Below are positions 1-15,755 of a DNA stretch of 15,755 bases, in pieces. Position 1 is the stretch's first letter. Every line of letters begins with the position of its first letter. This stretch comes from a virus (lineage: Duplodnaviria > Heunggongvirae > Uroviricota > Caudoviricetes): IMG/VR virus record IMGVR_UViG_2690316188_000011; one strand, 5' to 3'. The notes under the pieces were generated by a model, which did not search any database, was not told the origin of the DNA, and was given only the letters and a program-made list of their open reading frames with translations. Both the position numbers and the translations under genes were made by a program.

Positions 1-297
1 CAGATCTCCAGCCAGGGACTATTGAGTACGAACGCCATCGACTTACGCGTGCGCAGGCCGACGCACAGGAACTGAAGAATGCCAGAGACTCCGCTGAAGT
101 GGTGGAAACCGCATTCTGTACTTTCGTGTTGTCGCGGATCGCAGGTGAAATTGCCAGTATTCTCGACGGGATCCCCCTGTCGGTGCAGCGGCGTTTTCCG
201 GAACTGGAAAACCGACATGTTGATTTCCTGAAACGGGATATCATCAAAGCCATGAACAAAGCAGCCGCGCTGGATGAACTGATACCGGGGTTGCTGA

Positions 298-323
<26 letters not shown>
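1..323 (+). CDS. nu1: Terminase small subunit gpNu1, 3' portion (gene wraps the circular junction; 5' portion at 15448-15755)
   Basis: Frame enters at the window edge with no start codon. Translation (...[55 protein letters not shown]...EYIEQSG) is the C-terminal half of lambda Nu1 as I recall it. Bases 1-85 are identical to 15671-15755. The stop at 321-323 lies 26 nt inside the next gene, as in lambda. The ORF-track entry 99-323 is an internal Met of this gene. Confidence 0.95.
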
Positions 324-4004
<3,681 letters not shown>

Positions 4005-4024
<20 letters not shown>

Positions 4025-5324
4025 TCTCCCGCATATTGCCAGCATGGCCTTTAATGAGCCGCTGATGCTTGAACCCGCCTATGCGCGGGTTTTCTTTTGT
4101 GCGCTTGCAGGCCAGCTTGGGATCAGCCGCCTGACGGATGCGGTGTCCGGCGACAGCCTGACTGCCCAGGAGGCACTCGCGACGCTGGCATTATCCGGTG
4201 ATGATGACGGACCACGACAGGCCCGCAGTTATCAGGTCATGAACGGCATCGCCGTGCTGCCGGTGTCCGGCACGCTGGTCAGCCGGACGCGGGCGCTGCA
4301 GCCGTACTCGGGGATGACCGGTTACAACGGCATTATCGCCCGTCTGCAACAGGCTGCCAGCGACCCGATGGTGGACGGCATTCTGCTCGATATGGACACG
4401 CCAGGCGGAATGGTGGCGGGGGCATTTGACTGCGCTGACATCATCGCCCGTGTGCGAGACATAAAACCGGTATGGGCGCTGGCCAACGACATGAACTGCA
4501 GTGCAGGTCAGCTGCTTGCCAGTGCCGCCTCCCGGCGTCTGGTCACGCAGACCGCCCGGACAGGCTCCATCGGCGTCATGATGGCTCACAGTAATTACGG
4601 TGCTGCCCTGGAGAAACAGGGTGTGGAAATCACGCTGATTTACAGCGGCAGCCATAAGGTGGATGGCAATCCCTACAGCCATCTTCCGGATGACGTCCGG
4701 GAGACACTGCAGTCCCGGATGGACGCAACCCGCCAGATGTTTGCGCAGAAGGTGTCGGCATATACCGGCCTGTCTGTGCAGGCTGTGCTGGATACCGAGG
4801 CTGCAGTGTACAGCGGTCAGGAGGCCATTGATGCCGGACTGGCTGATGAACTTGTTAACAGCACCGATGCGATCACCGTCATGCGTGATGCACTGGATGC
4901 GCGTAAATCCCGTCTCTCAGGAGGACGAATGACCAAAGAGACTCAATCAACAACTGTTTCAGCCACTGCTTCGCAGACTGACGTTACTGACGTGGTGCCA
5001 GCGACGGAGGGCGAAAACGCCAGCGCGGCGCAGCCGGACGTGAACGCGCAGATCACCGCTGCGGTTGCGGCAGAAAATAGCCGCATTATGGGGATCCTCA
5101 ACTGTGAGGAGGCTCACGGACGCGAAGAACAGGCCCGCGTGCTGGCAGAAACCCCCGGTATGACCGTGGAAACGGCCCGCCGCATTCTGGCAGCTGCACC
5201 ACAGAGTGCACAGGCGCGCAGTGACACTGCGCTGGATCGTCTGATGCAGGGGGCACCGGCACCGCTGGCTGCAGGTAACCCGGCATCTGATGCCGTTAAC
5301 GATTTGCTGAACACACCAGTGTAA
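4005..5324 (+). CDS. C: Capsid assembly protease / minor capsid protein gpC (GTG start)
   Basis: The ORF-track frame 3858-5324 contains the lambda gpC sequence from VTAELRNLPHIASMAFNEPLMLEP onward. GTG at 4005 is in frame and preceded by GAGGAGGAG (3992-4000); this gives a 439-aa product, the length of lambda gpC. The 5' end overlaps the B stop at 4022-4024. Confidence 0.9.
4719..5324 (+). CDS. nu3: Scaffolding protein Nu3, nested in frame within the 3' part of C
   Basis: In lambda, Nu3 is translated from an internal in-frame start in the last third of C. An in-frame ATG (MDATRQMFAQKVSAYTGL...) is present at 4719, the equivalent position. Not distinguishable from C by sequence alone. Confidence 0.55.
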   Translation: MDATRQMFAQKVSAYTGLSVQAVLDTEAAVYSGQEAIDAGLADELVNSTDAITVMRDALDARKSRLSGGRMTKETQSTTVSATASQTDVTDVVPATEGENASAAQPDVNAQITAAVAAENSRIMGILNCEEAHGREEQARVLAETPGMTVETARRILAAAPQSAQARSDTALDRLMQGAPAPLAAGNPASDAVNDLLNTPV

Positions 5325-5333
5325 GGGATGTTT

Positions 5334-5666
5334 ATGACGAGCAAAGAAACCTTTACCCATTACCAGCCGCTGGGCAACAGTGACCCGGCACATACGGCAA
5401 CCGCGCCCGGCGGATTGAGTGCGAAAGCGCCTGCAATGACCCCGCTGATGCTGGACACCTCCACCCGTAAGCTGGTTGCGTGGGATGGCACCACCGACGG
5501 TACTGCCGTTGGCATTCTGGCGGTTGATGCTGACCAGACCAGCACCACGCTGACGTTCTACAAGTCCGGCACGTTCCGTTATGAGGATGTGCTCTGGCCG
5601 GAGGCTGCCAGCGACGAGACGAAAAAACGGACCGCGTTTGCCGGAACGGCAATCAGCATCGTTTAA
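5334..5666 (+). CDS. D: Head decoration protein gpD
   Basis: 110-aa product from ATG 5334 ([43 protein letters not shown]...[11 protein letters not shown]) matches lambda gpD with about three substitutions. RBS AGGGA upstream. The ORF-track start at 5328 adds two residues absent from lambda D. Confidence 0.95.
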
Positions 5667-5684
5667 CCTTACCCTTCATCACTA

Positions 5685-5708
5685 AAGGCCGCCTGTGCGG
5701 CTTTTTTT
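5685..5708 (+). terminator. Hairpin plus T-run in the D-E intergenic region (attenuator/terminator-like)
   Basis: GCCGC (5688-5692), loop CTGT, GCGGC (5697-5701), then TTTTTTT (5702-5708). Sits in the 55-nt D-E gap, the same spacing as lambda. Confidence 0.4.
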
Positions 5709-5721
5709 ACGGGATTTTTTT

Positions 5722-5997
5722 ATGTCGATGTACACAACCGCCCAGCTGCTGGCGGCAAATGAGAAGAAATTTAAGTTTGATCCGCTGTTTCTGCGTCTCT
5801 TTTTCCGTGAGAGCTATCCCTTCACCACGGAGAAAGTCTATCTCTCACAAATTCCGGGACTGGTAAACATGGCGCTGTACGTTTCGCCGATTGTTTCCGG
5901 TGAGGTTATCCGCTCCCGTGGCGGCTCCACCTCTGAATTTACACCGGGATATGTCAAGCCGAAGCACTTAGCATGGCTTTCTGAGGCTTTCGTGTAG
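5722..5997 (+). pseudogene. E: Major capsid protein gpE, truncated: 83 N-terminal codons then unrelated sequence and a stop
   Basis: ATG 5722 gives MSMYTTAQLLAANEKKFKFDPLFLRLFFRESYPFTTEKVYLSQIPGLVNMALYVSPIVSGEVIRSRGGSTSEFTPGYVKPKH, colinear with lambda gpE (341 aa in lambda). After codon H83 (ends 5966) the frame reads LAWLSEAFV-stop, which is not E sequence. Downstream DNA is AT-rich and leads into the integrase gene. Confidence 0.85.
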
Positions 5998-6129
5998 TTG
6001 CTGGTTTTTACACTTAATCTTTTGATAATAAAGAATAAGTTTATCTGGTGCTTTCACTGAATTTTCCTCGTTATCTGTGTGTTGCAATCATCTCTGTATT
6101 GCAGCTTGTATTGCTTTTTGGGGCTAAAA

Positions 6130-7365
6130 ATGGCTGGCGAGAACAAACTGAGCGACAAAGCGCTTAAAGGATATCTGGGGAAACCCAGAGAAAAGCAGAT
6201 CACCATTGCTGATGGAAAGGGGCTTTCTATTCGTGTGAGTACTAAAGGGGCTGTGAGCTTTGTTTTCTTCTACAGGTTAGCAGGTGGCCGGGCTGCTCCG
6301 GTCTGGCTAACGTTGGGTAAATATCCTGATATGTCACTCAAACAGGCAAGGGAAAAGCGCGACGAGTGCCGTGGTTGGTTGGCTGACAAACGTGATCCGC
6401 GTATCCAGATTAAGATTCAGGCTGAAGAACGCTTAAAGCCGGTCACAGTGGAGGATGCACTAAATTACTGGTATGAAAATTACTGTAAGGTGCGTCGTAA
6501 AACTCATGCTGTAACGCTTGGCAGATTTCGAAAGCATATCTTTCCCTATATCGGTCATTTGCCCGTAAATGACACTCACCTATATGAATGGCTGGACTGT
6601 TTTGACCGAATTAAACGTAATGCACCAGTTATGGCGGCGTATGTTTTTTCTGACACTAAATTAGCTCTTCGTTTTTGTCGGGTACGCCAGTACGCGACGT
6701 GTGATGCTTTAAAGGATTTGCGCATGAGTGATGTGGGGCAGATTGCAGGTAAGCGGGATCGGGTTCTGGATGAAGCCGAACTCGGCCAGCTCTGGAAGGC
6801 AATTTTTGTCGAGCCTGATTTAAAACTAATGTCTGAATACACGCGAAAAATGTTTGTGCTTTGTACAGTATTTGGATGTCGAATGAGTGAAGCCCGATTA
6901 TCAGAATGGAGCGAATGGGATCTCGAAAGTTGGGTTTGGACTGTACCAAAAGATCACTCAAAAACTGGTGTTGAAATCGTCAGACCAGTACCTGAAATTC
7001 TACGACAGTGGGTAACGGATGTTCACGAAGAGACAAAACATACTGGTTATGTGCTGGGAAGTCTGCGAATTAGAGAAAGCGTAAGCAAGATTGGGGGGAA
7101 AATCGGTAAACGTTTGGGCCATGAAAAACAATGGTCACTACACGACCTTAGAAGAACGCTATCTACTCATCTAAGTGATCTCGGTGTTGAATTTTATGTA
7201 GTAGAACAACTGTTAGGCCATGCGCTACCTGGCGTGGCAGGTGTTTACAACCGGAGTAAGTTTATGGCTAAAAAACTGGATGCTCTGGAACTCTGGACTA
7301 CATATCTCAATAGCATCGCAGGTGCTGATTCAAAAGTGACAATCCTCAAACAAAAGGCTGGTTAA
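6130..7365 (+). CDS. int: Tyrosine recombinase / integrase, P4-family (PICI / CP4-57-like)
   Basis: Catalytic signature residues are visible: R in GCRMSEARL, H-x-x-R in SLHDLRRTL, H in LLGHALPG, Y in GVYNRSKF. Basic N-terminal arm-binding-like domain (MAGENKLSDKALKGYLGKPREKQITIADGKGLSIRV). Start placed at ATG 6130 rather than the upstream ORF-track start at 6079. Confidence 0.9.
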   Translation: MAGENKLSDKALKGYLGKPREKQITIADGKGLSIRVSTKGAVSFVFFYRLAGGRAAPVWLTLGKYPDMSLKQAREKRDECRGWLADKRDPRIQIKIQAEERLKPVTVEDALNYWYENYCKVRRKTHAVTLGRFRKHIFPYIGHLPVNDTHLYEWLDCFDRIKRNAPVMAAYVFSDTKLALRFCRVRQYATCDALKDLRMSDVGQIAGKRDRVLDEAELGQLWKAIFVEPDLKLMSEYTRKMFVLCTVFGCRMSEARLSEWSEWDLESWVWTVPKDHSKTGVEIVRPVPEILRQWVTDVHEETKHTGYVLGSLRIRESVSKIGGKIGKRLGHEKQWSLHDLRRTLSTHLSDLGVEFYVVEQLLGHALPGVAGVYNRSKFMAKKLDALELWTTYLNSIAGADSKVTILKQKAG

Positions 7366-7366
7366 C

Positions 7367-7588
7367 ATGAAAAAAATGGCAATTGTCGATAAAAAGGGTC
7401 TGGAGTACATTCCTAATATCGATCGTATGATCCGTGAGAAAGAATGTCGGGAGCTAACCACTCTTGCGAACAGCACACGCTGGAAGCTGGAGAAGGAAGG
7501 AAAATTTCCTAAGCGGATCAAGATTGGTTCCACTGCTGTTGCATATCGTCTTTCAGAAGTGCAGGCATGGATTAGGGGAGAGTGGTAA
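7367..7588 (+). CDS. alpA: AlpA-family HTH regulator / excisionase-like protein
   Basis: 73 aa; core ELTTLANSTRWKLEKEGKFPKRIKIGSTAVAYRLSEVQAWI fits the AlpA/MerR-like winged-HTH pattern. Lies immediately after int (stop TAA 7363-7365, start 7367), the usual int-alpA arrangement of Gram-negative PICI/P4-like elements. Confidence 0.8.
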   Translation: MKKMAIVDKKGLEYIPNIDRMIREKECRELTTLANSTRWKLEKEGKFPKRIKIGSTAVAYRLSEVQAWIRGEW

Positions 7589-7607
7589 GAATTTAGACAG
7601 TGGATGT

Positions 7608-7634
7608 AATCCTATGGGGTAAACCCATAGGATT
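7608..7634. terminator. Hairpin between convergent genes (candidate bidirectional terminator)
   Basis: AATCCTATGGG (7608-7618), loop GTAAA, CCCATAGGATT (7624-7634): perfect 11-bp stem. Lies between the alpA stop (7588) and the stop of the leftward 449-aa gene (7640). No strong T-tract on either side, so terminator function is uncertain. Confidence 0.4.
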
Positions 7635-7639
7635 TGAAA

Positions 7640-8989
7640 TCACTTAAATTCAAATACGTGCGTAGTTGATGAGATTATATAATTAGGTGGTAAGTATTGA
7701 ACTATTTCTCCATCTTCTTCAAAAATATGAATAACTCTTGGGAATAATTCAGGGCGTATAGGATTTAATGCCTTCGGATTATGAAACATGTATATTGCTG
7801 TACACCATGGTTCTTGATATGAAGGTGCATTGACAAGAGCAGTAAAAGGCATTGGGGTACAGCCTTCATCAGTTTTAATACCTCTAACGATGGATTTGAC
7901 ATTTTTTTGTTCAATCCCTGCCACTACTCCCATCCTATCAAATTTTGGGATGGTGGCATGTGTCGCAAGTAATATGGCTGAGACATTCTCATTTTTATTA
8001 GAGCCGAAAAAATTAGATTGTATACTTCGATTTTCAAATAAATGTTGTTCAATTTTACTTCCAGAATCCATATCTACACCATACAGATAGCTTTGTAGTG
8101 CTGGCATTGATATACTCATCGAAAATCTGCGTGAGTAATCGTGTAAAGCAATAATGAAAGGCTTTCCTTTTGTATGATCTAGTTCCCAATAGCATAATTT
8201 TAAGGGTTCAGGTTTATGCCTAACTTTCTTTAATAGAGTGCGGGCAAATTTGAATGGCATTTGTTCTTTTACATATCTCTGAAGATCTTCTACTGCCTCA
8301 TGATCAAGTATCAATTTCTCGGTAGGTTCCTCTTGTTCTGCAACTGTGGCAGCTTCTACAGCAATATCAATGCCATTTTTTGAGATAATATAATCAGGTT
8401 GAGCATAATCTCTGCATATTACGAAATCCATTTCGTAGAAAACTGCGTTTAGATAAAGTTCGAATAAGCGAGAGTTAAATGAAGCACTCTGGAAATCTCT
8501 GATGAATATTCCATCAGGATCTTTACACCAATAAGCTAACTCTTGCATAACAATAAATGCAGGATAGTGTTTGGGTTCCTCAAGTAGCATTCTTAGATAA
8601 ACGTTTTTTTTATGTTCTGGAACTTTGGCTAGGAATATTGAAAATGCCGACTCTGATTCGTCACCCTGTATAAAACAACCGTTCTTGTGTAGTGATAATA
8701 GCTCTGGTATGGCTTTTTCCATATCAGTAATTAAATCATCTTTAGATTCACGGGATACAATTACTTTAATCGCTCTAAATTTTTTATCTAAATCCCTACC
8801 TAGAAATATAGCGTTGTAATCATTATCTATTTTACAAAAAACAATTGTTGCTAAGATCGTGACATCATCCTTTATAAATTTGAACCAACAGATTTCCTCC
8901 GAAAAGGTTTTTACGTATGGTGTACGACCATAGAAAAATACATCAAATTGTTCTTTACTGATTTCTAGCATTTTGTGACTTGTTGTCAT
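7640..8989 (-). CDS. Hypothetical 449-aa protein, no family recognised; candidate defence/exclusion cargo
   Basis: Long uninterrupted minus-strand ORF in a visibly AT-rich segment. ATG at 8989 is preceded by AAGGA about 8 nt upstream. Starts 23 nt after the upstream RHH gene stop on the same strand (operon-like). I recognise no catalytic motif with confidence. Confidence 0.7.
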   Translation of the reverse strand: MTTSHKMLEISKEQFDVFFYGRTPYVKTFSEEICWFKFIKDDVTILATIVFCKIDNDYNAIFLGRDLDKKFRAIKVIVSRESKDDLITDMEKAIPELLSLHKNGCFIQGDESESAFSIFLAKVPEHKKNVYLRMLLEEPKHYPAFIVMQELAYWCKDPDGIFIRDFQSASFNSRLFELYLNAVFYEMDFVICRDYAQPDYIISKNGIDIAVEAATVAEQEEPTEKLILDHEAVEDLQRYVKEQMPFKFARTLLKKVRHKPEPLKLCYWELDHTKGKPFIIALHDYSRRFSMSISMPALQSYLYGVDMDSGSKIEQHLFENRSIQSNFFGSNKNENVSAILLATHATIPKFDRMGVVAGIEQKNVKSIVRGIKTDEGCTPMPFTALVNAPSYQEPWCTAIYMFHNPKALNPIRPELFPRVIHIFEEDGEIVQYLPPNYIISSTTHVFEFK

Positions 8990-9012
8990 AGAAGAATCCT
9001 TTATGCAAATTA

Positions 9013-9207
9013 TCAGCCTTTAGGTGTTATTCCTTGTTTTATTAGTTCGGCACGAGCCAGTTCTTTTAGCCAGTTACCTAAGCTCATCCCTTCTTTGGCA
9101 GCGACATTAACCATTTGTTCTTTTAATTCTGGGTTAATACGGACTTGGAATGCTGGTGCTTTACCTGCACCTTTCGGTTGTTTATCACGTTGAATGATAG
9201 TTGACAT
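9013..9207 (-). CDS. Ribbon-helix-helix (Arc/MetJ/CopG-like) DNA-binding protein
   Basis: 64 aa, MSTIIQRDKQPKGAGKAPAFQVRINPELKEQMVNVAAKEGMSLGNWLKELARAELIKQGITPKG. An alternating beta-strand segment (PAFQVRINP) followed by two short helices fits the RHH fold pattern. First gene of the leftward operon; a perfect inverted repeat abuts its start codon. Confidence 0.7.
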   Translation of the reverse strand: MSTIIQRDKQPKGAGKAPAFQVRINPELKEQMVNVAAKEGMSLGNWLKELARAELIKQGITPKG

Positions 9208-9249
9208 GTGTGTACCTATTGCTTAGTATGATTCTTGATAGGTACACAC
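9208..9249. promoter_or_regulatory. Operator-like perfect 12-bp inverted repeat in the divergent promoter region
   Basis: GTGTGTACCTAT (9208-9219) and ATAGGTACACAC (9238-9249) are exact reverse complements, 18 bp apart. The left arm directly abuts the RHH start codon. An extended -10-like TGcTATATA lies at 9265-9273, oriented rightward. Confidence 0.5.
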
Positions 9250-9346
9250 CTTATCATGTTTTATTGCTATATAACAACGCCCTGCAGTGCTCGCAACACA
9301 TACAGGGCGTCTAACCACCAACGATAGCAACAGTATCGAGGTAGCT

Positions 9347-9550
9347 ATGAGAAATCATACCACACACCCGCAAGGGCGGGATTCGCACAACCTGAATAAA
9401 TACATCTGGCGTTTTATCGCCCTGAGCACCGCACAACCACGCGTAATACACATCGAGGCCGCCAGCGAACAGGAAGCCCGCCAGCAATCCCCAACTGGCT
9501 ACGTGATGATATTCGCCGCCCGTATTCGTCAGGAGGTGTGCCGTGCTTAA
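9347..9550 (+). CDS. Hypothetical small protein (67 aa), weakly supported
   Basis: ATG 9347 preceded by GAGG (9338-9341). Its stop overlaps the next gene's start. No recognisable domain. A 98-aa ORF on the opposite strand (9311-9607) overlaps it and cannot be excluded. Confidence 0.3.
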   Translation: MRNHTTHPQGRDSHNLNKYIWRFIALSTAQPRVIHIEAASEQEARQQSPTGYVMIFAARIRQEVCRA

Positions 9551-9728
9551 AACCTTCCGTGTATTTGCCCGAGCTGTTAACCCACTGGGCCACACAATTG
9601 GTATCACTCAGAACGTGAAGGCTGTTAATGTTCAGACGGCTATTGCTGCGGTGAGAAGCGAATCATCAGAATATGGCTTATCACAAGTCATTATTTCAGC
9701 AGTGTATGAATTAAAAGAGGTGCATTAA
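9543..9728 (+). CDS. Hypothetical small protein (61 aa, GTG start)
   Basis: GTG 9543 preceded by AGGAGG (9531-9536) at 6-nt spacing. Stop TAA 9726-9728 overlaps the next ATG (TAATG). Confidence 0.45.
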   Translation: MLKTFRVFARAVNPLGHTIGITQNVKAVNVQTAIAAVRSESSEYGLSQVIISAVYELKEVH

Positions 9729-9919
9729 TGCAGGAAATCACATTACACGAAGCCGCTGAACGTGCGCACCAGACAGAAATTATTTGCCGCCTTCTTGAGG
9801 TATACCCGAACAAAATTACAGATGCTGATATATCCGCGCTGGCGAGCCTACTGGCGCGCCTTTCGGGAAGTGTCGCTAGTTTCCTGATTGAGGAAGAAAG
9901 TAAGCTGGTGGGGGATTAA
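9728..9919 (+). CDS. Hypothetical small protein (63 aa)
   Basis: ATG 9728 preceded by AAAGAGG (9714-9720). Followed immediately by the next ORF (TAA then ATG at 9920). Confidence 0.5.
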   Translation: MQEITLHEAAERAHQTEIICRLLEVYPNKITDADISALASLLARLSGSVASFLIEEESKLVGD

Positions 9920-10141
9920 ATGAATACAGAACGGGAAGTCTTTTTTAAATTGTTAGCATGTGCAGAAAGTTCATTAACTTTAAATAATTCAGCAAAAGCA
10001 ATATTAAATATGTGGCTTGATTGCATAAATGACAATGAAGATGCAAATATTGCTTATGGCCTGTTGTCACTTATTGATGAATCAGCAGAAAAACTCAATG
10101 ACGCAATAAATAGTGCCCTGCTATCAAATAAGTCGAGTTAA
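9920..10141 (+). CDS. Hypothetical small acidic protein (73 aa), markedly AT-rich gene
   Basis: ATG 9920 preceded by GGTGGGGGA (9907-9915). Composition visibly more AT-rich than its neighbours. Product looks helical and acidic (…LIDESAEKLNDAINSALL…). Confidence 0.5.
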   Translation: MNTEREVFFKLLACAESSLTLNNSAKAILNMWLDCINDNEDANIAYGLLSLIDESAEKLNDAINSALLSNKSS

Positions 10142-10158
10142 GTCGAGGAATAAATAAT

Positions 10159-10458
10159 ATGGAAATGAAAAATTCTGGCTTTATTGCCAGCGGCCCCGCT
10201 CGGCCTGAATTTATGAACGGCGATATTTACCGCGATAAATACGGCGGCACGGTAACGATTAAAGGCGTGGCAGAACGGCGCATCACTTACCGCCGTGAGG
10301 GGTATAGCTATGACTGCGTGATGCCTGTTTATCAGTTCCGGCGTGATTTTTCCCTGGTATATGCCGCACCCCGCAGTAAGCCCATCAGCAGGGAAAAAGC
10401 GCGGGGAAACATCCAGAAAATGAAAAGCATGATTAACGCATTCAGGGGCAAAAAATGA
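10159..10458 (+). CDS. Hypothetical 99-aa protein, translationally coupled to the primase gene
   Basis: ATG 10159 with GAGGAA (10145-10150) upstream. Stop TGA 10456-10458 overlaps the primase ATG 10455 (ATGA). Confidence 0.6.
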   Translation: MEMKNSGFIASGPARPEFMNGDIYRDKYGGTVTIKGVAERRITYRREGYSYDCVMPVYQFRRDFSLVYAAPRSKPISREKARGNIQKMKSMINAFRGKK

Positions 10459-12206
10459 AACTGGCACCGAACTTAAAAAAACAGCCACGCGACAGACTGA
10501 CAGAGGTAATCATCTTTGCAGGTAGTGATGCGTGGAGCCATGCGAAAGAGTGGCGGGAATGGGCGGGTAAACATATTGCCGCCGACGATGTGCCGCCTGT
10601 CGTGCTGGCTGATGAGCAACTGAAAAATATCACCGATTACCGGATCATTGATGAAGATCGTCAGTGTGTGCGTGTTTACCGCGCAGGACATATCACAGAG
10701 CACAGCATGACGCAGATTGTTACGTTACTGGCTGTGGCTGGAGTGAAGACCGTACACGAATACGCGGGGATTACTGACACCAGCCCAGTGGATTTATCCG
10801 AGCAGTTGCCGCGACTCAAAGAGGAATGCGAGCGTGGGGAAAGTCTGGTGCTTAATCTTCCGACGAAGCAAAAGGCGCAACTTTCACAGATGGCAGACAG
10901 TGAACGTGCACAACTACTTGCCGATCGCTTTGATGGTGTGTGTGTTCATGCAGAAAGTGAAATCGTCCACGTATGGCGCGGCGGGGTATGGTGTCCGGTC
11001 AGCACAATGGAGCTGAGCCGCGAAATGGTGGCGATCTATTCAGAGCACAGGGCCACGTTCAGCAAACGTGTAATCAATAACGCCGTGGAAGCGTTAAAAG
11101 TTATTGCCGACCCCATGGGGGAGCCGTCCGGTGATTTGCTACCGTTCACTAATGGTGTGCTTAACCTGAAAACGGGGGAATTTTCTCCGCACTCGCCGGA
11201 GCACTGGAGCACCACGCACAATGGCATTGAGTACACGCCACCAGTAGCAGGGGAAAACATCCGCGATAATGCGCCAAATTTCCATAAATGGCTTGAACAT
11301 GCTGCAAGAAAAGACCCGCGTAAGATGATGCGTATATGTGCCGCGTTATACATGATTATGGCGAACCGCTACGACTGGCAGATGTTCATTGAGGCCACCG
11401 GAGACGGGGGAAGCGGTAAGAGTACATTTACCCATATTGCCACCCTGCTTGCTGGCAAACAGAACACCGTAAGCGCGGAGATGACATCACTCGATGATGC
11501 AGGAGGGCGCGCGCAGGTTGTCGGGAGTCGTCTTATCGTCCTTGCCGATCAGCCGAAATATACGGGGGAAGGCACGGGCATCAAGAAAATCACGGGAGGC
11601 GATCCCGTTGAAATTAACCCGAAATATGAGAAGCGATTCACGACGATAATAAGGGCGGTGGTACTGGCAACCAATAACGACCCGATGATCTTTACCGAAC
11701 GGGCCGGAGGTGTGTCACGCCGTCGGGTGATTTTCCGGTTCGACAACATTGTAAGGGAGGACGAAAAAGACAAGGAATTACCGGAAAAGATAGCGGCAGA
11801 AATCCCCGTAATTATCCGCCGCTTGCTGGCTAATTTTGCTGCCCCTGAAAAGGCACGGGCTTTATTACTGGAACAGCGTGACGGTGATGAAGCTCTGGCA
11901 ATAAAGCAGCAAACGGATCCGGTTGTTGAGCTTTGCGCGGCGCTGGAGTTTCTGGAGGAAGCTCGTGGGCTAATGATGGGCGGTGGTGGTGACACCGTGA
12001 AGTACACGACCAGAAACAGCCTTTACCGTGTCTATATGGCCTTCATGGCATACACAGGAAAGGGGAAATGTTTGAGCGTGAATGAGTTCGGAAAGGCTAT
12101 GAGGTCAGCGGCGAAAGTTTACGGATATGAATATATTACGCGAAAAGTTAAGGGAGTCACGCAGACCAACGCAACGACTACTGATGATTGCGATGCGTTT
12201 TTATAA
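10455..12206 (+). CDS. Replication initiator: primase / SF3-helicase fusion (P4 alpha / D5-like NTPase)
   Basis: 583 aa. Walker A P-loop GDGGSGKST in the sequence ...FIEATGDGGSGKSTFTHIATLLAG..., with a Walker-B-like hydrophobic stretch plus acidic residue (RLIVLADQP) downstream. An iteron array follows the stop, as in P4-type and PICI pri-rep/ori modules. Confidence 0.85.
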   Translation: MKLAPNLKKQPRDRLTEVIIFAGSDAWSHAKEWREWAGKHIAADDVPPVVLADEQLKNITDYRIIDEDRQCVRVYRAGHITEHSMTQIVTLLAVAGVKTVHEYAGITDTSPVDLSEQLPRLKEECERGESLVLNLPTKQKAQLSQMADSERAQLLADRFDGVCVHAESEIVHVWRGGVWCPVSTMELSREMVAIYSEHRATFSKRVINNAVEALKVIADPMGEPSGDLLPFTNGVLNLKTGEFSPHSPEHWSTTHNGIEYTPPVAGENIRDNAPNFHKWLEHAARKDPRKMMRICAALYMIMANRYDWQMFIEATGDGGSGKSTFTHIATLLAGKQNTVSAEMTSLDDAGGRAQVVGSRLIVLADQPKYTGEGTGIKKITGGDPVEINPKYEKRFTTIIRAVVLATNNDPMIFTERAGGVSRRRVIFRFDNIVREDEKDKELPEKIAAEIPVIIRRLLANFAAPEKARALLLEQRDGDEALAIKQQTDPVVELCAALEFLEEARGLMMGGGGDTVKYTTRNSLYRVYMAFMAYTGKGKCLSVNEFGKAMRSAAKVYGYEYITRKVKGVTQTNATTTDDCDAFL

Positions 12207-12217
12207 AAAATGGCAAT

Positions 12218-12452
12218 GGTTATCTACCTTGTCTACCTGACTGAAAGAAAATACTTTTATTTCAATGTATTAATGCAGGTAGATAACTATTTTTCACTGT
12301 CTACCTGTTATCTACCTTATCTACCCATTTTTGTAGACAGGTAAGGAGACGGGTAGAGATGAGGTAGACAGCTATTTGGGGCTGTCTACCTCCCTGAAAC
12401 CCGCGCCATTACTGGCCTGATAACTAATCAGGTAGACAAGGTAGACAAGGTG
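12218..12452. repeat. Iteron array: candidate origin of replication
   Basis: About 11 copies of the core TCTACC / GGTAGA (extended TGTCTACC / GGTAGACA) in both orientations, for example 12223, 12232, 12278 (rev), 12300, 12311, 12320, 12352 (rev), 12363 (rev), 12385, 12431 (rev), 12440 (rev). An AT-rich spacer at 12241-12275 may be an unwinding element. Confidence 0.7.
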
Positions 12453-12495
12453 GTGGTGCACAAAAAACTTTTTAAACGAGGGGGTAAAAATAAAA

Positions 12496-12753
12496 ATGCA
12501 CACATCAGGAAAACTGAACAAACATATAAAGCCACATTACCGCGCCCTTGATATGGCTGAACACTGGCTAAGGGTGGCGATTAAGGCAATAGACCGCAAC
12601 GCCGGGGAAGGATACGCGAAAGCACATCCCGAACTGATAAGCGCATTCATGACAACGGCGGCTGCAAACTTTGCCACGCTGACCGAACGGGAGATTGCTG
12701 AAGCGGAGGAAGTGACAACAATCAATATTAAGTCCGGAGAGCAGGCAGCATGA
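12496..12753 (+). CDS. Hypothetical 85-aa protein, translationally coupled to the SSB-like gene
   Basis: ATG 12496 with GAGGGGG upstream. Stop TGA 12751-12753 overlaps ATG 12750 of the next gene. Confidence 0.5.
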   Translation: MHTSGKLNKHIKPHYRALDMAEHWLRVAIKAIDRNAGEGYAKAHPELISAFMTTAAANFATLTEREIAEAEEVTTINIKSGEQAA

Positions 12754-13199
12754 CGGCGCAAATATCAGTTTACGGGCGGTTGGTGGACGACCCGCAGACA
12801 AAACAGACCAGCAAGGGCACCCCCATGACGCTGGCGCGTATGGCGGTATCACTGCCCTGCAGTCAGTCGGATGACGGTCTGGCGACGTTGTGGTTATCTG
12901 TCCTGGCGTTTGGCAGACAAGCCGACGCGCTGGCAAAGCATCACAAAGGCGAACTCCTGAGCGTGGCGGGTAACATGCAGATGAGCCAGTGGACTGGACA
13001 GAACGGCGAAACGCGGCAGGGCTGGCAGGTTATCGCAGACAGCGTAATCAGTGCGCGATCGGTGCGACCGGGCGGCAAAAAAGGCCAACAGGGGCAGGCT
13101 ACTGACGCACTGAACAGAGCAAAACAACAGGCAGATCAGCAAGGAAGCCAGCCACCAGAGGGAGATAATGAGCAATGGGGAGATGATATCCCGTTTTAA
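12750..13199 (+). CDS. Single-stranded DNA-binding protein (SSB-like OB fold with acidic C-terminal tail)
   Basis: 149 aa. N-terminal pattern ISVYGRLVDDPQTKQT...WLSVLAFGRQAD resembles the SSB OB fold (VxGRL..DPE ... W..V..FG). Gly/Gln-rich linker and C-terminus ...EQWGDDIPF, which matches the conserved SSB tail motif DDDIPF. Confidence 0.75.
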   Translation: MTAQISVYGRLVDDPQTKQTSKGTPMTLARMAVSLPCSQSDDGLATLWLSVLAFGRQADALAKHHKGELLSVAGNMQMSQWTGQNGETRQGWQVIADSVISARSVRPGGKKGQQGQATDALNRAKQQADQQGSQPPEGDNEQWGDDIPF

Positions 13200-13217
13200 A
13201 TATTGCCAATAAAAAAA

Positions 13218-13241
13218 GCCGGAAAAAATAAATTTTCCGGC
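13218..13241 (-). terminator. Hairpin with U-tract on the minus strand (leftward terminator-like)
   Basis: GCCGGAAAA (13218-13226), loop AATAAA, TTTTCCGGC (13233-13241). The A-run at 13211-13217 becomes a U-tract 3' of the hairpin only for leftward transcripts. Confidence 0.4.
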
Positions 13242-13415
13242 ATGCTACATAAATCCCGACCAAAGGGAGTGAAGATATTAACACTAATTGTCCGCACTGA
13301 AGTTGTCACCCCAAAACTTTATACAACATTGCACTCGGTTGCATGTGTTCGCATGACAAATATCGGTGATAGCATATATCCACAATTATTTTTAATGAAT
13401 GCAAAGAGGATGCGT

Positions 13416-14456
13416 ATGGTTGATTTATATTCGCCTACCCAGCTTGTACAGGTGGTTAATGCTGTAGATGTACAAAAACAACTAAATGCGTTGTTTACCA
13501 GTTTGTTTTTTACTCGCTCGGTAATGTTTGGATCGCGCGATATTATTCTTGATACAATCGACGATCCAAATATCCCAATTGCAGCGTTTTGTTCTCCTAT
13601 GGTGGGTAGTAAAGTTTCACGTGACGAAGGGTACGAATCAAAAACAATTCGTCCAGGCTATATGAAGCCGAAAAGCAGCATTGATCCAAATAAGTTAGCT
13701 GTGCGCCCTGCTGGTGTATCACCTGAGCAATACAATGCTTTTGGGGCGCGTAATATTAAAGTTAAACAGGCGATTGTAAATCAAGCTAAAGCTATTCGTG
13801 CACGTATTGAATGGCTTGCCGTTCAGGCAATCACAACGGGGAAAAATATCATTGAGGGCGATGGTATTGAACGTTATGAGCTGGACTGGAATATTAAACC
13901 ACAAAATATCATCACTCAGTCTGGCGGTACTGAGTGGTCAGGTAAGGATAAAGAAACTTTTGATCCAAATGATGATATTGAGAGCTACGCAGAATTTAGT
14001 GAGGGCGTCACTAATATCATCATTATGGGCGGTAATGTATGGAAGAAATACCGTTCATTCAGAGCGATAAAAGAGGCTCTGGATACCCGTCGTGGTTCTA
14101 ATTCCGAACTGGAAACGGCCCTTAAAGACCTTGGTGATTCGGTGAGTTTTAAAGGATATATGGGCGATGTTGCGATTGTTGTTTACAGCGGGCGTTATAC
14201 CGACGAGGACGGAACTGAAAAACATTTCCTTGATCCTGATTTGATGGTGCTTGGCAATACGGCTCTTCAGGGGATTGTCGCCTATGGCGGTATTCAGGAT
14301 CCGGAGCTAATCCGAATGGGGCTGACTAAAGCCGAACTTGCACCGAAAAACTATATTGTGCCTGGTGATCCGGCTATTGAATATGTGCAGACACATTCAG
14401 CACCACAGCCAATACCGGCCCGCATCAATCGTTTTGTTACCGTTCGCATTGGCTAA
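13416..14456 (+). CDS. Major capsid protein, lambda gpE family, divergent paralogue
   Basis: From ATG 13416 (AGAGGA at 13405-13410): MVDLYSPTQL...RPGYMKPKS...NIITQSGGTEWSGKDKETFDPNDDIESYA...YRSFRAIKEALDTRRGSNSELETALKDLGDSVSFKGYMGDVAIVVYSGRY...MVLGNT... Colinear with lambda gpE as I recall it (E has NITQSGGTEWSKRDKSTYDPTDDIEAYA...FRSFKAVKEKLDTRRGSNSELETAVKDLGKAVSYKGMYGDVAIVVYSGQY...MVLGNT) but clearly diverged. The ORF-track start at 13203 is rejected because it runs through a hairpin and a non-coding-looking leader. Confidence 0.85.
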   Translation: MVDLYSPTQLVQVVNAVDVQKQLNALFTSLFFTRSVMFGSRDIILDTIDDPNIPIAAFCSPMVGSKVSRDEGYESKTIRPGYMKPKSSIDPNKLAVRPAGVSPEQYNAFGARNIKVKQAIVNQAKAIRARIEWLAVQAITTGKNIIEGDGIERYELDWNIKPQNIITQSGGTEWSGKDKETFDPNDDIESYAEFSEGVTNIIIMGGNVWKKYRSFRAIKEALDTRRGSNSELETALKDLGDSVSFKGYMGDVAIVVYSGRYTDEDGTEKHFLDPDLMVLGNTALQGIVAYGGIQDPELIRMGLTKAELAPKNYIVPGDPAIEYVQTHSAPQPIPARINRFVTVRIG

Positions 14457-14465
14457 GGGGGAGCA

Positions 14466-14807
14466 ATGGCTACTCATTACACTGAACTCATGGCTGGCAC
14501 TGAAGCACTGGTGACTACGCTGGGGATATTTTCAGCTAATAAAGGGGTAATTCCTGCATTTACGCCACTGATGCAGGAAGATGCAACAGGTGCACTGGTG
14601 GTATGGGATGGTTCGAGCGTAGGTAAAGCGGTTTATGTTTCCGCTGTACAAATCGACACCGCGAAAAAAACACAGGCTCAGGTCTATAAGACAGGTGTCT
14701 TAAATGTTGATGCTCTGAACTGGCCTGAGTCTGTAAAAGAACTGTCAGTAAAGATTGCAGCGTTTGTTGGCTCAGGTATTTCTGTTCAGCCGCTGGCTCG
14801 TGTGTAA
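14466..14807 (+). CDS. Head decoration protein, gpD-like, divergent paralogue
   Basis: 113 aa. Shares the gpD landmarks TPLM, WDG, YK(S/T)G, WPE and AF.G..IS (…AFTPLMQEDATGALVVWDGSSVG…QVYKTGVLNVDALNWPES…AAFVGSGISVQ) with lambda D (…[22 protein letters not shown]…[18 protein letters not shown]…[11 protein letters not shown]). RBS AAGGGGGAG. Confidence 0.75.
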   Translation: MATHYTELMAGTEALVTTLGIFSANKGVIPAFTPLMQEDATGALVVWDGSSVGKAVYVSAVQIDTAKKTQAQVYKTGVLNVDALNWPESVKELSVKIAAFVGSGISVQPLARV

Positions 14808-14818
14808 AGGGGGATACA

Positions 14819-15202
14819 ATGCAAAATGATTACAATGACCTTAAGCCAATTGCCGAAATGATGTACCCGAATCCAGCTGTAGAGGAATTAAAAGCTATCG
14901 CTGACAAAATGTGTTTAAGCGAGCGCCTTGTTGATATGAATCAGGTGATGGAAATTACAACCCTGAGTCGGCGTACACTGCTAAACCTTGAGGCTAGTGG
15001 AGAGTTCCCGGAGCGTGTGCAGGTTACGGAAGGGCGTAAGGCCTGGTATTTAAGTGAAGTGATCGACTGGATAAATAATATTCCTCGCGCTTCTGAATAT
15101 TGCCGCGTACCTGTCCCAAAAAAGCCAGATGCGGCGCTATGCCTCAAGATTGAGCGTGTACGCCGCAATGCACGGGATGGTCGCTATAAGCTGATTGGTT
15201 GA
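14819..15202 (+). CDS. AlpA/MerR-like winged-HTH protein next to cos; candidate packaging-redirection (Rpp-like) factor
   Basis: 127 aa. Central segment MNQVMEITTLSRRTLLNLEASGEFPERVQVTEGRKAWYLSEVIDWI fits the AlpA / Nu1-N-terminal HTH pattern. Last gene before cos; RBS AAGGGGGA as in the two capsid genes. Confidence 0.55.
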   Translation: MQNDYNDLKPIAEMMYPNPAVEELKAIADKMCLSERLVDMNQVMEITTLSRRTLLNLEASGEFPERVQVTEGRKAWYLSEVIDWINNIPRASEYCRVPVPKKPDAALCLKIERVRRNARDGRYKLIG

Positions 15203-15227
15203 TGAAATTAGGGCCCGCTCTGGCTGG

Positions 15228-15447
15228 CGGGTCCTTTCCGGCGATCTGACAGGCTACGGGGCGTCAGGCGCGCGGATTTTCGCTATTTATGAAAATTTTC
15301 CGGTTTAAGGCGTTTCCGTTCTTCTTCGTCGTAACTTAATGTTTTTATTTAAAATACCCCCTGAAAAGAAAGGAAACGACAGGTGCTGAAAGCGAGCTTT
15401 TTGGCCTCTGTCGTTTCCTTTCTCTGTTTTTGTCCGTGGAATGAACA
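15228..15447. other. Lambdoid cos packaging site (cosQ-like, cosN-equivalent 15259-15270, cosB with R3/R2/R1 Nu1-binding elements)
   Basis: Colinear with the lambda right-end/left-end junction as I recall it. cosQ-like GGGTCCTTTCCGGCGATCTGACAGGCTACG. cosB CGCGGATTTTCGCTATTTATGAAAATTTTCCGG... with CGTTTCC at 15311-15317 (R3), GGAAACG at 15372-15378 (R2) and CGTTTCC at 15412-15418 (R1); R2 and R1 form an inverted repeat (GGAAACGACAG / CTGTCGTTTCC). Ends at the Nu1 start codon. Confidence 0.8.
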
Positions 15448-15755
15448 ATGGAAGTCAACAAAAAGCAGCTGGCTGACATTTTCGGTGCGAGTATCCGTAC
15501 CATTCAGAACTGGCAGGAACAGGGAATGCCCGTTCTGCGAGGCGGTGGCAAGGGTAATGAGGTGCTTTATGACTCTGCCGCCGTCATAAAATGGTATGCC
15601 GAAAGGGATGCTGAAATTGAGAACGAAAAGCTGCGCCGGGAGGTTGAAGAACTGCGGCAGGCCAGCGAGGCAGATCTCCAGCCAGGGACTATTGAGTACG
15701 AACGCCATCGACTTACGCGTGCGCAGGCCGACGCACAGGAACTGAAGAATGCCAG
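15448..15755 (+). CDS. nu1: Terminase small subunit gpNu1, 5' portion (continues at 1-323 across the circular junction)
   Basis: ATG 15448 gives [102 protein letters not shown], matching the lambda Nu1 N-terminus. It runs off the window end in the same frame in which position 1 enters. Confidence 0.95.
15671..15755. repeat. 85-bp terminal overlap identical to bases 1-85 (circular closure of the record)
   Basis: Exact identity of 15671-15755 with 1-85 (CAGATCTCCAGCCAGGGACTATTGAGTACG...GAAGAATGCCAG). Reading frames are continuous across the join. Confidence 0.9.

Follow-up and report, generated by a model that had tools for sequence, protein, structure and literature searches.

Helper-embedded phage-inducible chromosomal islands (HE-PICIs) were named by Tommasini, Mageeney and Williams (2023; PMC10111431), who mapped 201 elements at the site E:Phage_cap_E:80, where a 10-bp identity block is found, and who observed by quantitative PCR and deep sequencing that helper and satellite are first excised and replicated as a composite, the satellite being excised precisely afterwards. 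For one of these elements, Eco567.11capE (11capE below), precise excision regenerating attB, and late timing, were shown experimentally (PMC10111431). A sister pair of capsid and decoration genes is known from the classical island (PICI) EcCICFT073, where the capsid gene c1499 is followed by the decoration homologue c1500; the protein deposited in the Protein Data Bank (PDB) as 3BQW, "putative capsid protein of prophage" from Escherichia coli CFT073, is the product of c1499. Here we analyze the Caudoviricetes record IMGVR_UViG_2690316188_000011 of the IMG/VR database, a stretch of 15,755 nt ("the window" below is this whole stretch), and in particular its genes for an E-like major capsid protein and a D-like head decoration protein, relatives of gpE and gpD of phage lambda. 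The element type, its integration site and its possession of a capsid gene have already been published, and the sister PICI pair has both a crystal structure and knockouts; this copy is set apart only by its cargo and by the variant of its late zone.

Two entities are joined in the window, a reading in which we have high confidence. One is the left end of a lambdoid helper prophage (15271, through the wrap, to 5966), running from cosB to E codon 82, and the other is most of an HE-PICI of the site group E:Phage_cap_E:80 (5957-15270), put by its own tyrosine integrase into the helper gene E at a 10-bp core and co-oriented with the late operon. Its late module, consisting of the E-like gene, the D-like gene and a gene for a helix-turn-helix (HTH) protein, lies directly 5′ of its own cos, and the apparent circle would come from the doubling of cosB and ~103 nu1 codons. 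The left boundary of the satellite is formed by the following features.

1-5966, plus strand: helper head region, with the nu1 3′ part to 323, A 298-2223, W 2220-2426, B 2423-4024, C 4005-5324, nested Nu3 4719-5324, D 5334-5666 and E′ 5722-5966 (codons 1-82)
5957-5966, plus strand: att core AGCCGAAGCA at the attL junction, E codons 80-82; the same 10 bp are found at attR of the reference chromosome L001
6095-6114, plus strand: doubled HE-PICI attP-arm motif TGTATTGCagctTGTATTGC, ~133 nt downstream of the core centre (1 match against 0.01 expected by chance)
6130-7365, plus strand: tyrosine integrase, 411 aa, with Pfam domains Arm-DNA-bind_3 and Phage_integrase
7367-7588, plus strand: AlpA (excisionase/regulator), Pfam Phage_AlpA 2.7e-15

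Positions 1-5966 align with lambda 414-6379 at 98.29% identity, gap-free, and positions 15271-15755 with lambda 13-498 at 98.97% identity; the DNA between these lambda-like stretches is unrelated to lambda and lower in GC. The lambda-type D gene (5334-5666) is 96.4% identical to gpD. Only codons 1-82 of E are present, 81 of the 82 identical to lambda, followed by nine unrelated codons and a stop at 5995-5997, and the fragment covers positions 1-78 of the Phage_cap_E profile, breaking off at codon 82. The arrangement from nu1 to E′ is likewise annotated for helpers in complete chromosomes, the overall order in E. coli being nu1-A-W-B-C-D-E′, then int...E-like-D-like-HTH-cos..., then ′E-FI-FII and the tail genes. 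The attR site and the 3′ part of E lie beyond the window and are present in the related chromosomes L001, L002, L016, L017 and L019. Because the two junctions share the 10-bp core and lambda E continues only on their outer sides, E has been split by site-specific integration and has not decayed. The initial annotation of the window had described the lambda-type E as truncated and dead; the truncation stands, and, as read from the junctions, the fragment is the 5′ half of a gene split at the core, with the 3′ half following attR in complete genomes.

The attL junction in the window reads GTCAAGCCGAAGCA followed by CTTAGCATGG, and the attR junction in the chromosomes CATGTAGCCGAAGCA followed by TGAGGTG, with AGCCGAAGCA as the common core. 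Over the core and the P′ arm, the window does not differ from the E_Phage_cap_E_80 attL sequences given as supplementary data to PMC10111431. The doubled motif of HE-PICIs, TGTATTGCnnnnTGTATTGC, lies on both sides of the attP centre, ~132 bp away in the downstream direction and ~81 bp away in the upstream direction (PMC10111431); the downstream copy is found in the window, and the place of the upstream one is on the attR side, outside it. The genes int and alpA adjoin attL on the same strand as E′ (plus), and the integrase is 99-100% identical to same-site integrases in IMG/VR contigs. The D-E′-int junction occurs in 170 of 5,426 complete E. coli genomes, and a junction search of IMG/VR gave 29 matches, all of the attL form and none of the attP form expected of an excised satellite. 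The embedded arrangement inside E is also observed in Cedecea and Kosakonia. Moreover, the four PICI zones (integration, dynamic/Bro, primase replication and late) are present in this order, with a size in the PICI range of ~10-18 kb; the satellite measures 10,571 bp in L001 and 11,417 bp in L002. Even in the best complete E. coli genomes, no more than 91% of the window is matched.

Terminase, portal, protease and D are helper genes and lie outside the satellite attL. The element had initially been thought to rely on lambda-type terminase, portal and protease carried by itself; the dependence is upheld by our analysis, the ownership is not.

The circularity of the window depends on three further features.

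1-85, no strand assigned: terminal overlap inside nu1, identical to 15671-15755 and ending ...GAATGCCAG
15226-15300, plus strand: satellite cos, with the cosN 12-mer GGGCGTCAGGCG at 15259-15270
15449-15755, plus strand: 5′ part of nu1 (small terminase subunit), continuing at 86-323 after the wrap and common to helper nu1 and the satellite hybrid terS

The 85-nt terminal direct repeat is real and implies a unit of 15,670 bp, taken in the initial annotation for a 15.67-kb genome. In the reference composites, cosB and the first ~103 nu1 codons occur twice in direct orientation, as a helper copy and as a satellite copy, the latter being the 5′ part of a hybrid terS with an unrelated 3′ part. The overlap ends at the exact point where satellite terS and helper nu1 diverge in L001, and starts one base past a position that is variable between the copies. 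After this breakpoint, L001 and all five of the five IMG/VR satellites with nu1′ after cos read CGAAACAGG (the terS C-domain) and not the helper's AGACTCCGC; in those satellites, as in the window, 499 nt separate the breakpoint from the cos pattern. The closing junction, HTH-cos-complete nu1-A, was found at a query coverage of at least 80% in none of the 5,426 complete E. coli genomes, each half alone being common. An isolate-genome contig in IMG/VR (L012, 15,348 nt) has the same starting point within nu1. As the overlap stops at the point of paralogue divergence and the junction is absent from complete genomes, we see the 15.67-kb circle as most likely a repeat-bounded assembly loop, and the 85-nt repeat seems to be the longest exact match between the two paralogous cos-nu1 copies. 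The circle carries attL and not attP, and is not the transmissible form of the satellite, which has ~10.6-11.4 kb in reference genomes.

Alternatively, the 15.67-kb circle could be a real molecule, produced in vivo either when RecA recombines the two cos-nu1′ repeats or when the unexcised composite is packaged from helper cos to satellite cos. Recombination would be possible between two direct repeats of ~500 bp that are 97-99% identical and 15-16 kb apart, and both cos sites have the same orientation. We consider such an origin improbable: the overlap, which stops at the divergence point on its right side and at the copy-variable base on its left, has the look of a maximal exact repeat, and none of the 29 IMG/VR junction matches is of this length or circularised. 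To our knowledge, 85 nt matches no assembler k-mer size in common use. The cos-to-cos route was rejected in its own right, as the cosN of the window is wholly of the satellite type and differs from that of the helper and lambda, GGGCGGCGACCT, at 5 of 12 positions. Because of this mismatch the cohesive ends of helper and embedded satellite would not anneal, and a join made by this route would fall at cosN, not inside nu1.

The window has also been taken for a self-contained 15.67-kb element, that is, a lambda-type capsid-forming PICI (cf-PICI) with head genes from terminase to D of its own, portal and protease included, in which E has been lost and a capsid, possibly a smaller one, is built from E-like and D-like. 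Besides the terminal repeat, the circle does have a near-complete set of head genes together with int, a replication module and cos, and its 15.7 kb are about one third of the lambda genome and close to the 15.4 kb of a cf-PICI. We regard this account as very improbable, however: the genes from nu1 to E′ are outside attL, are 98.3% identical to lambda and belong to helpers in chromosomes, with the rest of E and the tail genes following attR. The missing closing junction and the end of the overlap at the paralogue divergence point count against it as well, and a circle with attL in place of attP could not integrate site-specifically. The assembly loop has a practical side, since paralogous cos-nu1 repeats in a helper-satellite composite can lead to a contig that, owing to its direct terminal repeat, passes for a complete circular virus genome. 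Tools based on terminal repeats would probably score such a contig as complete, and it could be misread as a new capsid-forming element.

Some variation was seen at the satellite cos. The cosN GGGCGTCAGGCG is present in 22 IMG/VR contigs, and further satellite variants are GGGCGGAAGGCG, GGGCGTCGACCT, GGGCGGCAGACT and GGGCGTAAGACG, the loci compared being L001 25716-25727, L002 ~24835 and L034-L038. The canonical cosN is kept by the helpers seen, by lambda, by cos1 of EcCICFT073 and by the Kluyvera element. The hybrid terS (L001 25905-26456, outside the window) has ~103 codons near-identical to helper nu1, corresponding to the DNA-binding part, and a C-terminal part unrelated at the DNA level. 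It is found in some HE-PICIs of the E:80 site, where it is followed by a reverse-strand DUF2971 gene, and it occupies the place that rppA has downstream of cos in EcCICFT073.

The late module of the satellite encodes three proteins.

13416-14456, plus strand: E-like major capsid protein, 346 aa, intact open reading frame (ORF), satellite gene
14466-14807, plus strand: D-like head decoration protein, 113 aa, intact ORF, satellite gene
14819-15202, plus strand: second AlpA-family HTH protein, 127 aa, third gene of the late triad (Pfam Phage_AlpA 7.6e-9; PDB 8C3T 2e-9; phrog_2790 1e-49)

The first two are confirmed as true, diverged homologues of gpE and gpD, of the HK97-fold family and the gpD/SHP family, respectively. 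E-like matches Pfam Phage_cap_E (PF03864) with 142.5 bits (cut-off 22.9) and is 43.8% identical to lambda gpE end to end (42.3% by tblastn); phmmer gives 5.9e-77 to lambda gpE (7VI9) and 2.4e-121 to 3BQW, the closest solved structure. An AlphaFold2 model made from 32 homologues, with a mean predicted local distance difference test (pLDDT) of 74.7 and a predicted template modelling score (pTM) of 0.78, superposes on 3BQW with a template modelling (TM) score of 0.86 and on lambda gpE with TM 0.77-0.81. D-like matches Pfam HDPD (PF02924) with 56.3 bits (cut-off 29.1) and is 38.5% identical to lambda gpD and 40.4% to the window's own D, its best solved relatives being SHP of phage 21 (1TD0, 6e-16) and gpD (1C5E, 1e-11). 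The homology of two full-length, diverged proteins, first proposed from the sequence of the window, has held under alignment and structure prediction, and so has the order E-like then D-like, the reverse of lambda. Of the common ribosome-binding context assigned to all three genes, a part remains: TAA(A)GGGGGA is found 5′ of D-like and of the HTH gene, and E-like has AAGAGGA instead. GGGGGA also stands 5′ of another satellite ORF, at 9920, and is not special to the capsid genes.

The stop of E-like and the start of D-like (14454-14468) are 12 nt apart and in frame. A protein of 463 aa from one Logan sequence (P0005, PF03864 plus PF02924) is an in-frame E-like::D-like fusion with the length expected for read-through. 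Since Cedecea and Superficieibacter lack the in-frame spacing, this protein probably stems from a sequencing variant or from a sporadic mutant. Upstream of E-like there is a 216-nt spacer (13200-13415) with a hairpin at 13218-13241 that is terminator-like for the minus strand only.

No capsid with more than 60% identity to E-like was found among 50,697 phage records, the best being that of lambda (42%). In a large protein collection, the E-like clade (at least 52% identity and 360 bits) is separated by a gap from the phage relatives of gpE (at most 44% and 290 bits). The order E-like, D-like, AlpA-like HTH is kept in Kluyvera and Superficieibacter, where the triad is not embedded in E, and in Cedecea and Kosakonia, where it is. 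Against the orthologues of these four genera, the rate of nonsynonymous substitution (dN) is 0.07-0.14 for E-like and 0.17-0.25 for D-like; synonymous sites are saturated, and the ratio to synonymous substitution (dN/dS) of the pair is at most ~0.1. Judged from these comparisons, the E-like and D-like lineage is confined to satellites and is subject to purifying selection.

The divergence from the lambda proteins is unevenly distributed. In the stretch that the model shows as the A-domain (E-like residues ~160-280), the identity to gpE is 57-65%, and in residues 1-160, comprising the N-arm, the E-loop and the spine helix (110-141), only 22-35%. The E-loop of the model (~45-100) has low confidence; this stretch is 57-80% identical to c1499. 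The N-terminal third of D-like is ~56% identical to c1500, by hand count from the alignment, and far less like gpD. According to a passage of PMC5701804 that reviews Lander (2008), the N-terminus of lambda gpD joins the E-loop of one gpE and the N-arm of the adjacent gpE in a four-stranded sheet. We read E-like and D-like as a shell and cement pair that would have diverged together, as the alignments and the model suggest. Recent gene conversion between E-like and helper E, considered as a source of the conserved centre, was rejected, since third-codon identity is only 25-60% (near random) and the same residues are conserved in other genera.

The age and distribution of the lineage bear on one possible role of the pair, namely that of a captured spare part, either a backup for the split helper E or near-neutral baggage of the late zone, with no satellite-specific role. 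Capture of late genes and a backup copy have been proposed by Tommasini et al., who also remark that a capsid knockout was tolerated (PMC10111431), and late zones do vary, with tail-gene fragments, terS, Abi and DUF2971 genes differing between L001 and L002. Yet the lineage is old and restricted to satellites, with at most 44% identity to any phage capsid and third-codon positions near random relative to helper E; it is under strong purifying selection across genera, and it is also found in non-embedded PICIs, which split no capsid gene. Moreover, the unexcised composite (helper plus ~10.6 kb) would exceed the lambda packaging limit, and complementation of E in situ would presumably not rescue the helper. 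With these points in mind, the role of a spare part appears hardly probable.

Because of the strong purifying selection, the restriction to satellites and the matched decoration protein, we commit to a shell-building model, although tentatively and with rather less than even confidence in the mechanism as such: E-like and D-like would form a shell on helper portal, scaffold and protease, and this shell would be filled from the satellite cos. The late triad is probably expressed by read-through of the helper late operon or from an activator-dependent promoter; transcription of embedded satellite late genes with the helper late operon is a route proposed by Tommasini et al. (PMC10111431). E-like would then assemble into shells on the helper portal, the Nu3 scaffold and the C protease, and D-like would cement and stabilise the expanded E-like shell. 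The N-terminus of D-like may have diverged alongside the N-arm and E-loop of E-like, and helper gpD is probably ill-fitting. Helper terminase would fill the E-like shells from the satellite cos. As long as the satellite is integrated, helper E is split, and E-like would be the sole shell protein available. The shell would probably be of helper-like size and hold multimers of the ~10.6-kb genome, in line with what is reported for EcCICFT073; a reduced size is less likely. The small capsid suggested in the initial annotation found no support, as experiments with the closest homologues gave phage-sized DNA (PMC6092414).

Several observations weigh against this model. A promoter scan found no plus-strand sigma-70-like promoter upstream of E-like, so that the route of expression is itself conjectural. 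With lambda as helper and EcCICFT073 present, all packaged DNA was phage-sized, and deletion of c1499 or c1500 (55% and 54% identical to E-like and D-like, respectively) did not relieve the interference with lambda (PMC6092414), which was later assigned to RppA (PMC6739421). Tommasini et al. remark that the knockout of a PICI capsid gene was tolerated, and virions of 11capE or of its helper were not recoverable by the same authors (PMC10111431). The pair may be dispensable when the helper supplies gpE. A literature search found no functional work on HE-PICI capsid genes after 2023. The size distribution of satellites was considered as a test of capsid size and set aside, as for nearly every size between 9.5 and 25 kb there is an integer multiple that falls inside the packaging window of lambda.

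A different use of the same proteins would be interference. Like Ccm of SaPIbov5, E-like and D-like might take part in the assembly of helper capsids, or nucleate it, with a poisoning or resizing effect, the gain to the satellite being the blocking of the helper. There are precedents in Ccm, a homologue with the capsid fold that becomes part of capsids, whose size it redirects (PMC6893505), and in PmCI172, which makes small capsids and has a gene for a capsid homologue (PMC6092414), and the intra-capsomer A-domain of E-like is close enough to that of gpE that it could permit mixed capsomers. On the other hand, neither deletion of c1499 nor that of c1500 restored lambda plaques, and small-capsid DNA was not seen (PMC6092414); a poison would need no co-diverged decoration protein under purifying selection, and in the embedded state the helper is without E anyway until excision. 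We consider the interference role unlikely.

The shell-building model may be extended, as a possible but doubtful case, to a shell-only capsid-forming satellite that would stand between classical PICIs and cf-PICIs. Its location in helper E would make the first procapsids after induction satellite-type, and the shell could differ in T number. By our own estimate, the capacity of a lambda-like head would be near the spacing of 14.4-15.8 kb from helper cos to satellite cos for T=4, and near 10.6 kb for T=3. Taken as a whole, the locus structure together with the shell model is the best explanation that we can offer, and we hold it with slightly better than even confidence. The capsid and decoration pair are the commonest late genes in Gram-negative PICIs, and the only knockouts reported are without phenotype; the question whether a satellite can supply only the shell of a virion is most cleanly posed with an embedded satellite, by which the helper shell gene is silenced.

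The remaining features belong to the dynamic and replication zones of the satellite.

7640-8989, minus strand: PD-T7-1 anti-phage defence protein, 449 aa, cargo (PADLOC PDLC04073, 1.3e-153; GC 33-38%)
9013-9207, minus strand: HicB/Arc-like gene, adjoining the PD-T7-1 gene
10159-10458, no strand assigned: DUF4222 gene, directly before the primase gene
10455-12206, plus strand: primase/helicase (D5_N, DUF5906), from Pfam and annotation
12215-12450, no strand assigned: putative replication origin, with iterons and inverted repeats (families D6, I1, I3) just 3′ of the primase gene
12750-13199, plus strand: single-strand DNA-binding protein (SSB), Pfam SSB 2.1e-15

The PD-T7-1 ORF is full-length, has no Pfam domain and lies in the dynamic zone. 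The whole cargo region is common to only one complete E. coli genome, where it is degraded, and the cargo is rare in this backbone. The region 12215-12450, with the direct repeat GTTATCTACCTTGTCTACC occurring twice and nested inverted repeats, is probably the satellite replication origin, an assignment suggested by its repeats; PICI origins described in PMC6092414 have a matching position relative to the primase gene. The satellite also encodes small ORFs. An Rfam scan of the window, which included the C4/isrK immunity RNAs reported in some PICIs, gave no match. For the HTH gene (14819-15202), a relationship to Rpp proteins was considered and rejected, as it is of the AlpA family and has no match to solved RppC structures, and no similarity was seen to the CFT073 gene in the same position.

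Among known systems, 11capE and the E:Phage_cap_E:80 group are closest to the satellite in the window, sharing the integration site, the 10-bp core, the attL arm and the doubled attP-arm motif, the co-orientation with helper E, and the sequence of zones from int-alpA through the dynamic and primase/SSB zones to a late zone with its own capsid gene and cos. The satellite differs from 11capE in carrying the PD-T7-1 gene in the dynamic zone and, most likely, in the late zone of its source, which would have the hybrid terS variant, whereas 11capE is described without terS. Moreover, the window presents the satellite looped with helper DNA and without attR.

In EcCICFT073 the pair c1499 and c1500 is of the same lineage (55% and 54% identity, TM 0.86), has the same capsid-then-decoration order and is likewise located just upstream of a lambda-like cos (cos1). 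In contrast to the embedded satellite, EcCICFT073 is integrated in the chromosome and not in a helper, its third gene is unrelated, RppA is encoded downstream of cos1, and cosN is canonical. This pair has been tested, with no size redirection and no effect on interference. Lambda gpE and gpD (7VI9, 7VII, 1C5E) share with E-like and D-like the Pfam families, the fold and an A-domain that is ~60% identical, and the same pairing of decoration and capsid protein is expected; the differences are in the overall identity (44% and 38%), in the reversed gene order, and in the strong divergence of the N-arm, E-loop, spine helix and decoration N-terminus.

Ccm of SaPIbov5, likened here by description, is also a satellite-encoded homologue of the helper major capsid protein in a cos-packaged island. 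It acts, however, with the helper capsid protein, shrinks the capsid and has no partner decoration protein, and size redirection of this kind was not seen for the closest E. coli homologue of E-like, that of EcCICFT073. The cf-PICIs, such as EcCIEDL933 (Alqurainy et al., bioRxiv 10.1101/2022.09.08.507074), resemble the satellite in having their own major capsid protein and an int-alpA-rep backbone, and the window, as misassembled, resembles them in size and content. The cf-PICIs encode terminase, portal, protease and connectors in an HK97-type module within their att boundaries, whereas here the satellite contributes no more than a capsid and a decoration protein, with the hybrid terS added in some copies, and the other head genes are those of the helper, outside the att sites.

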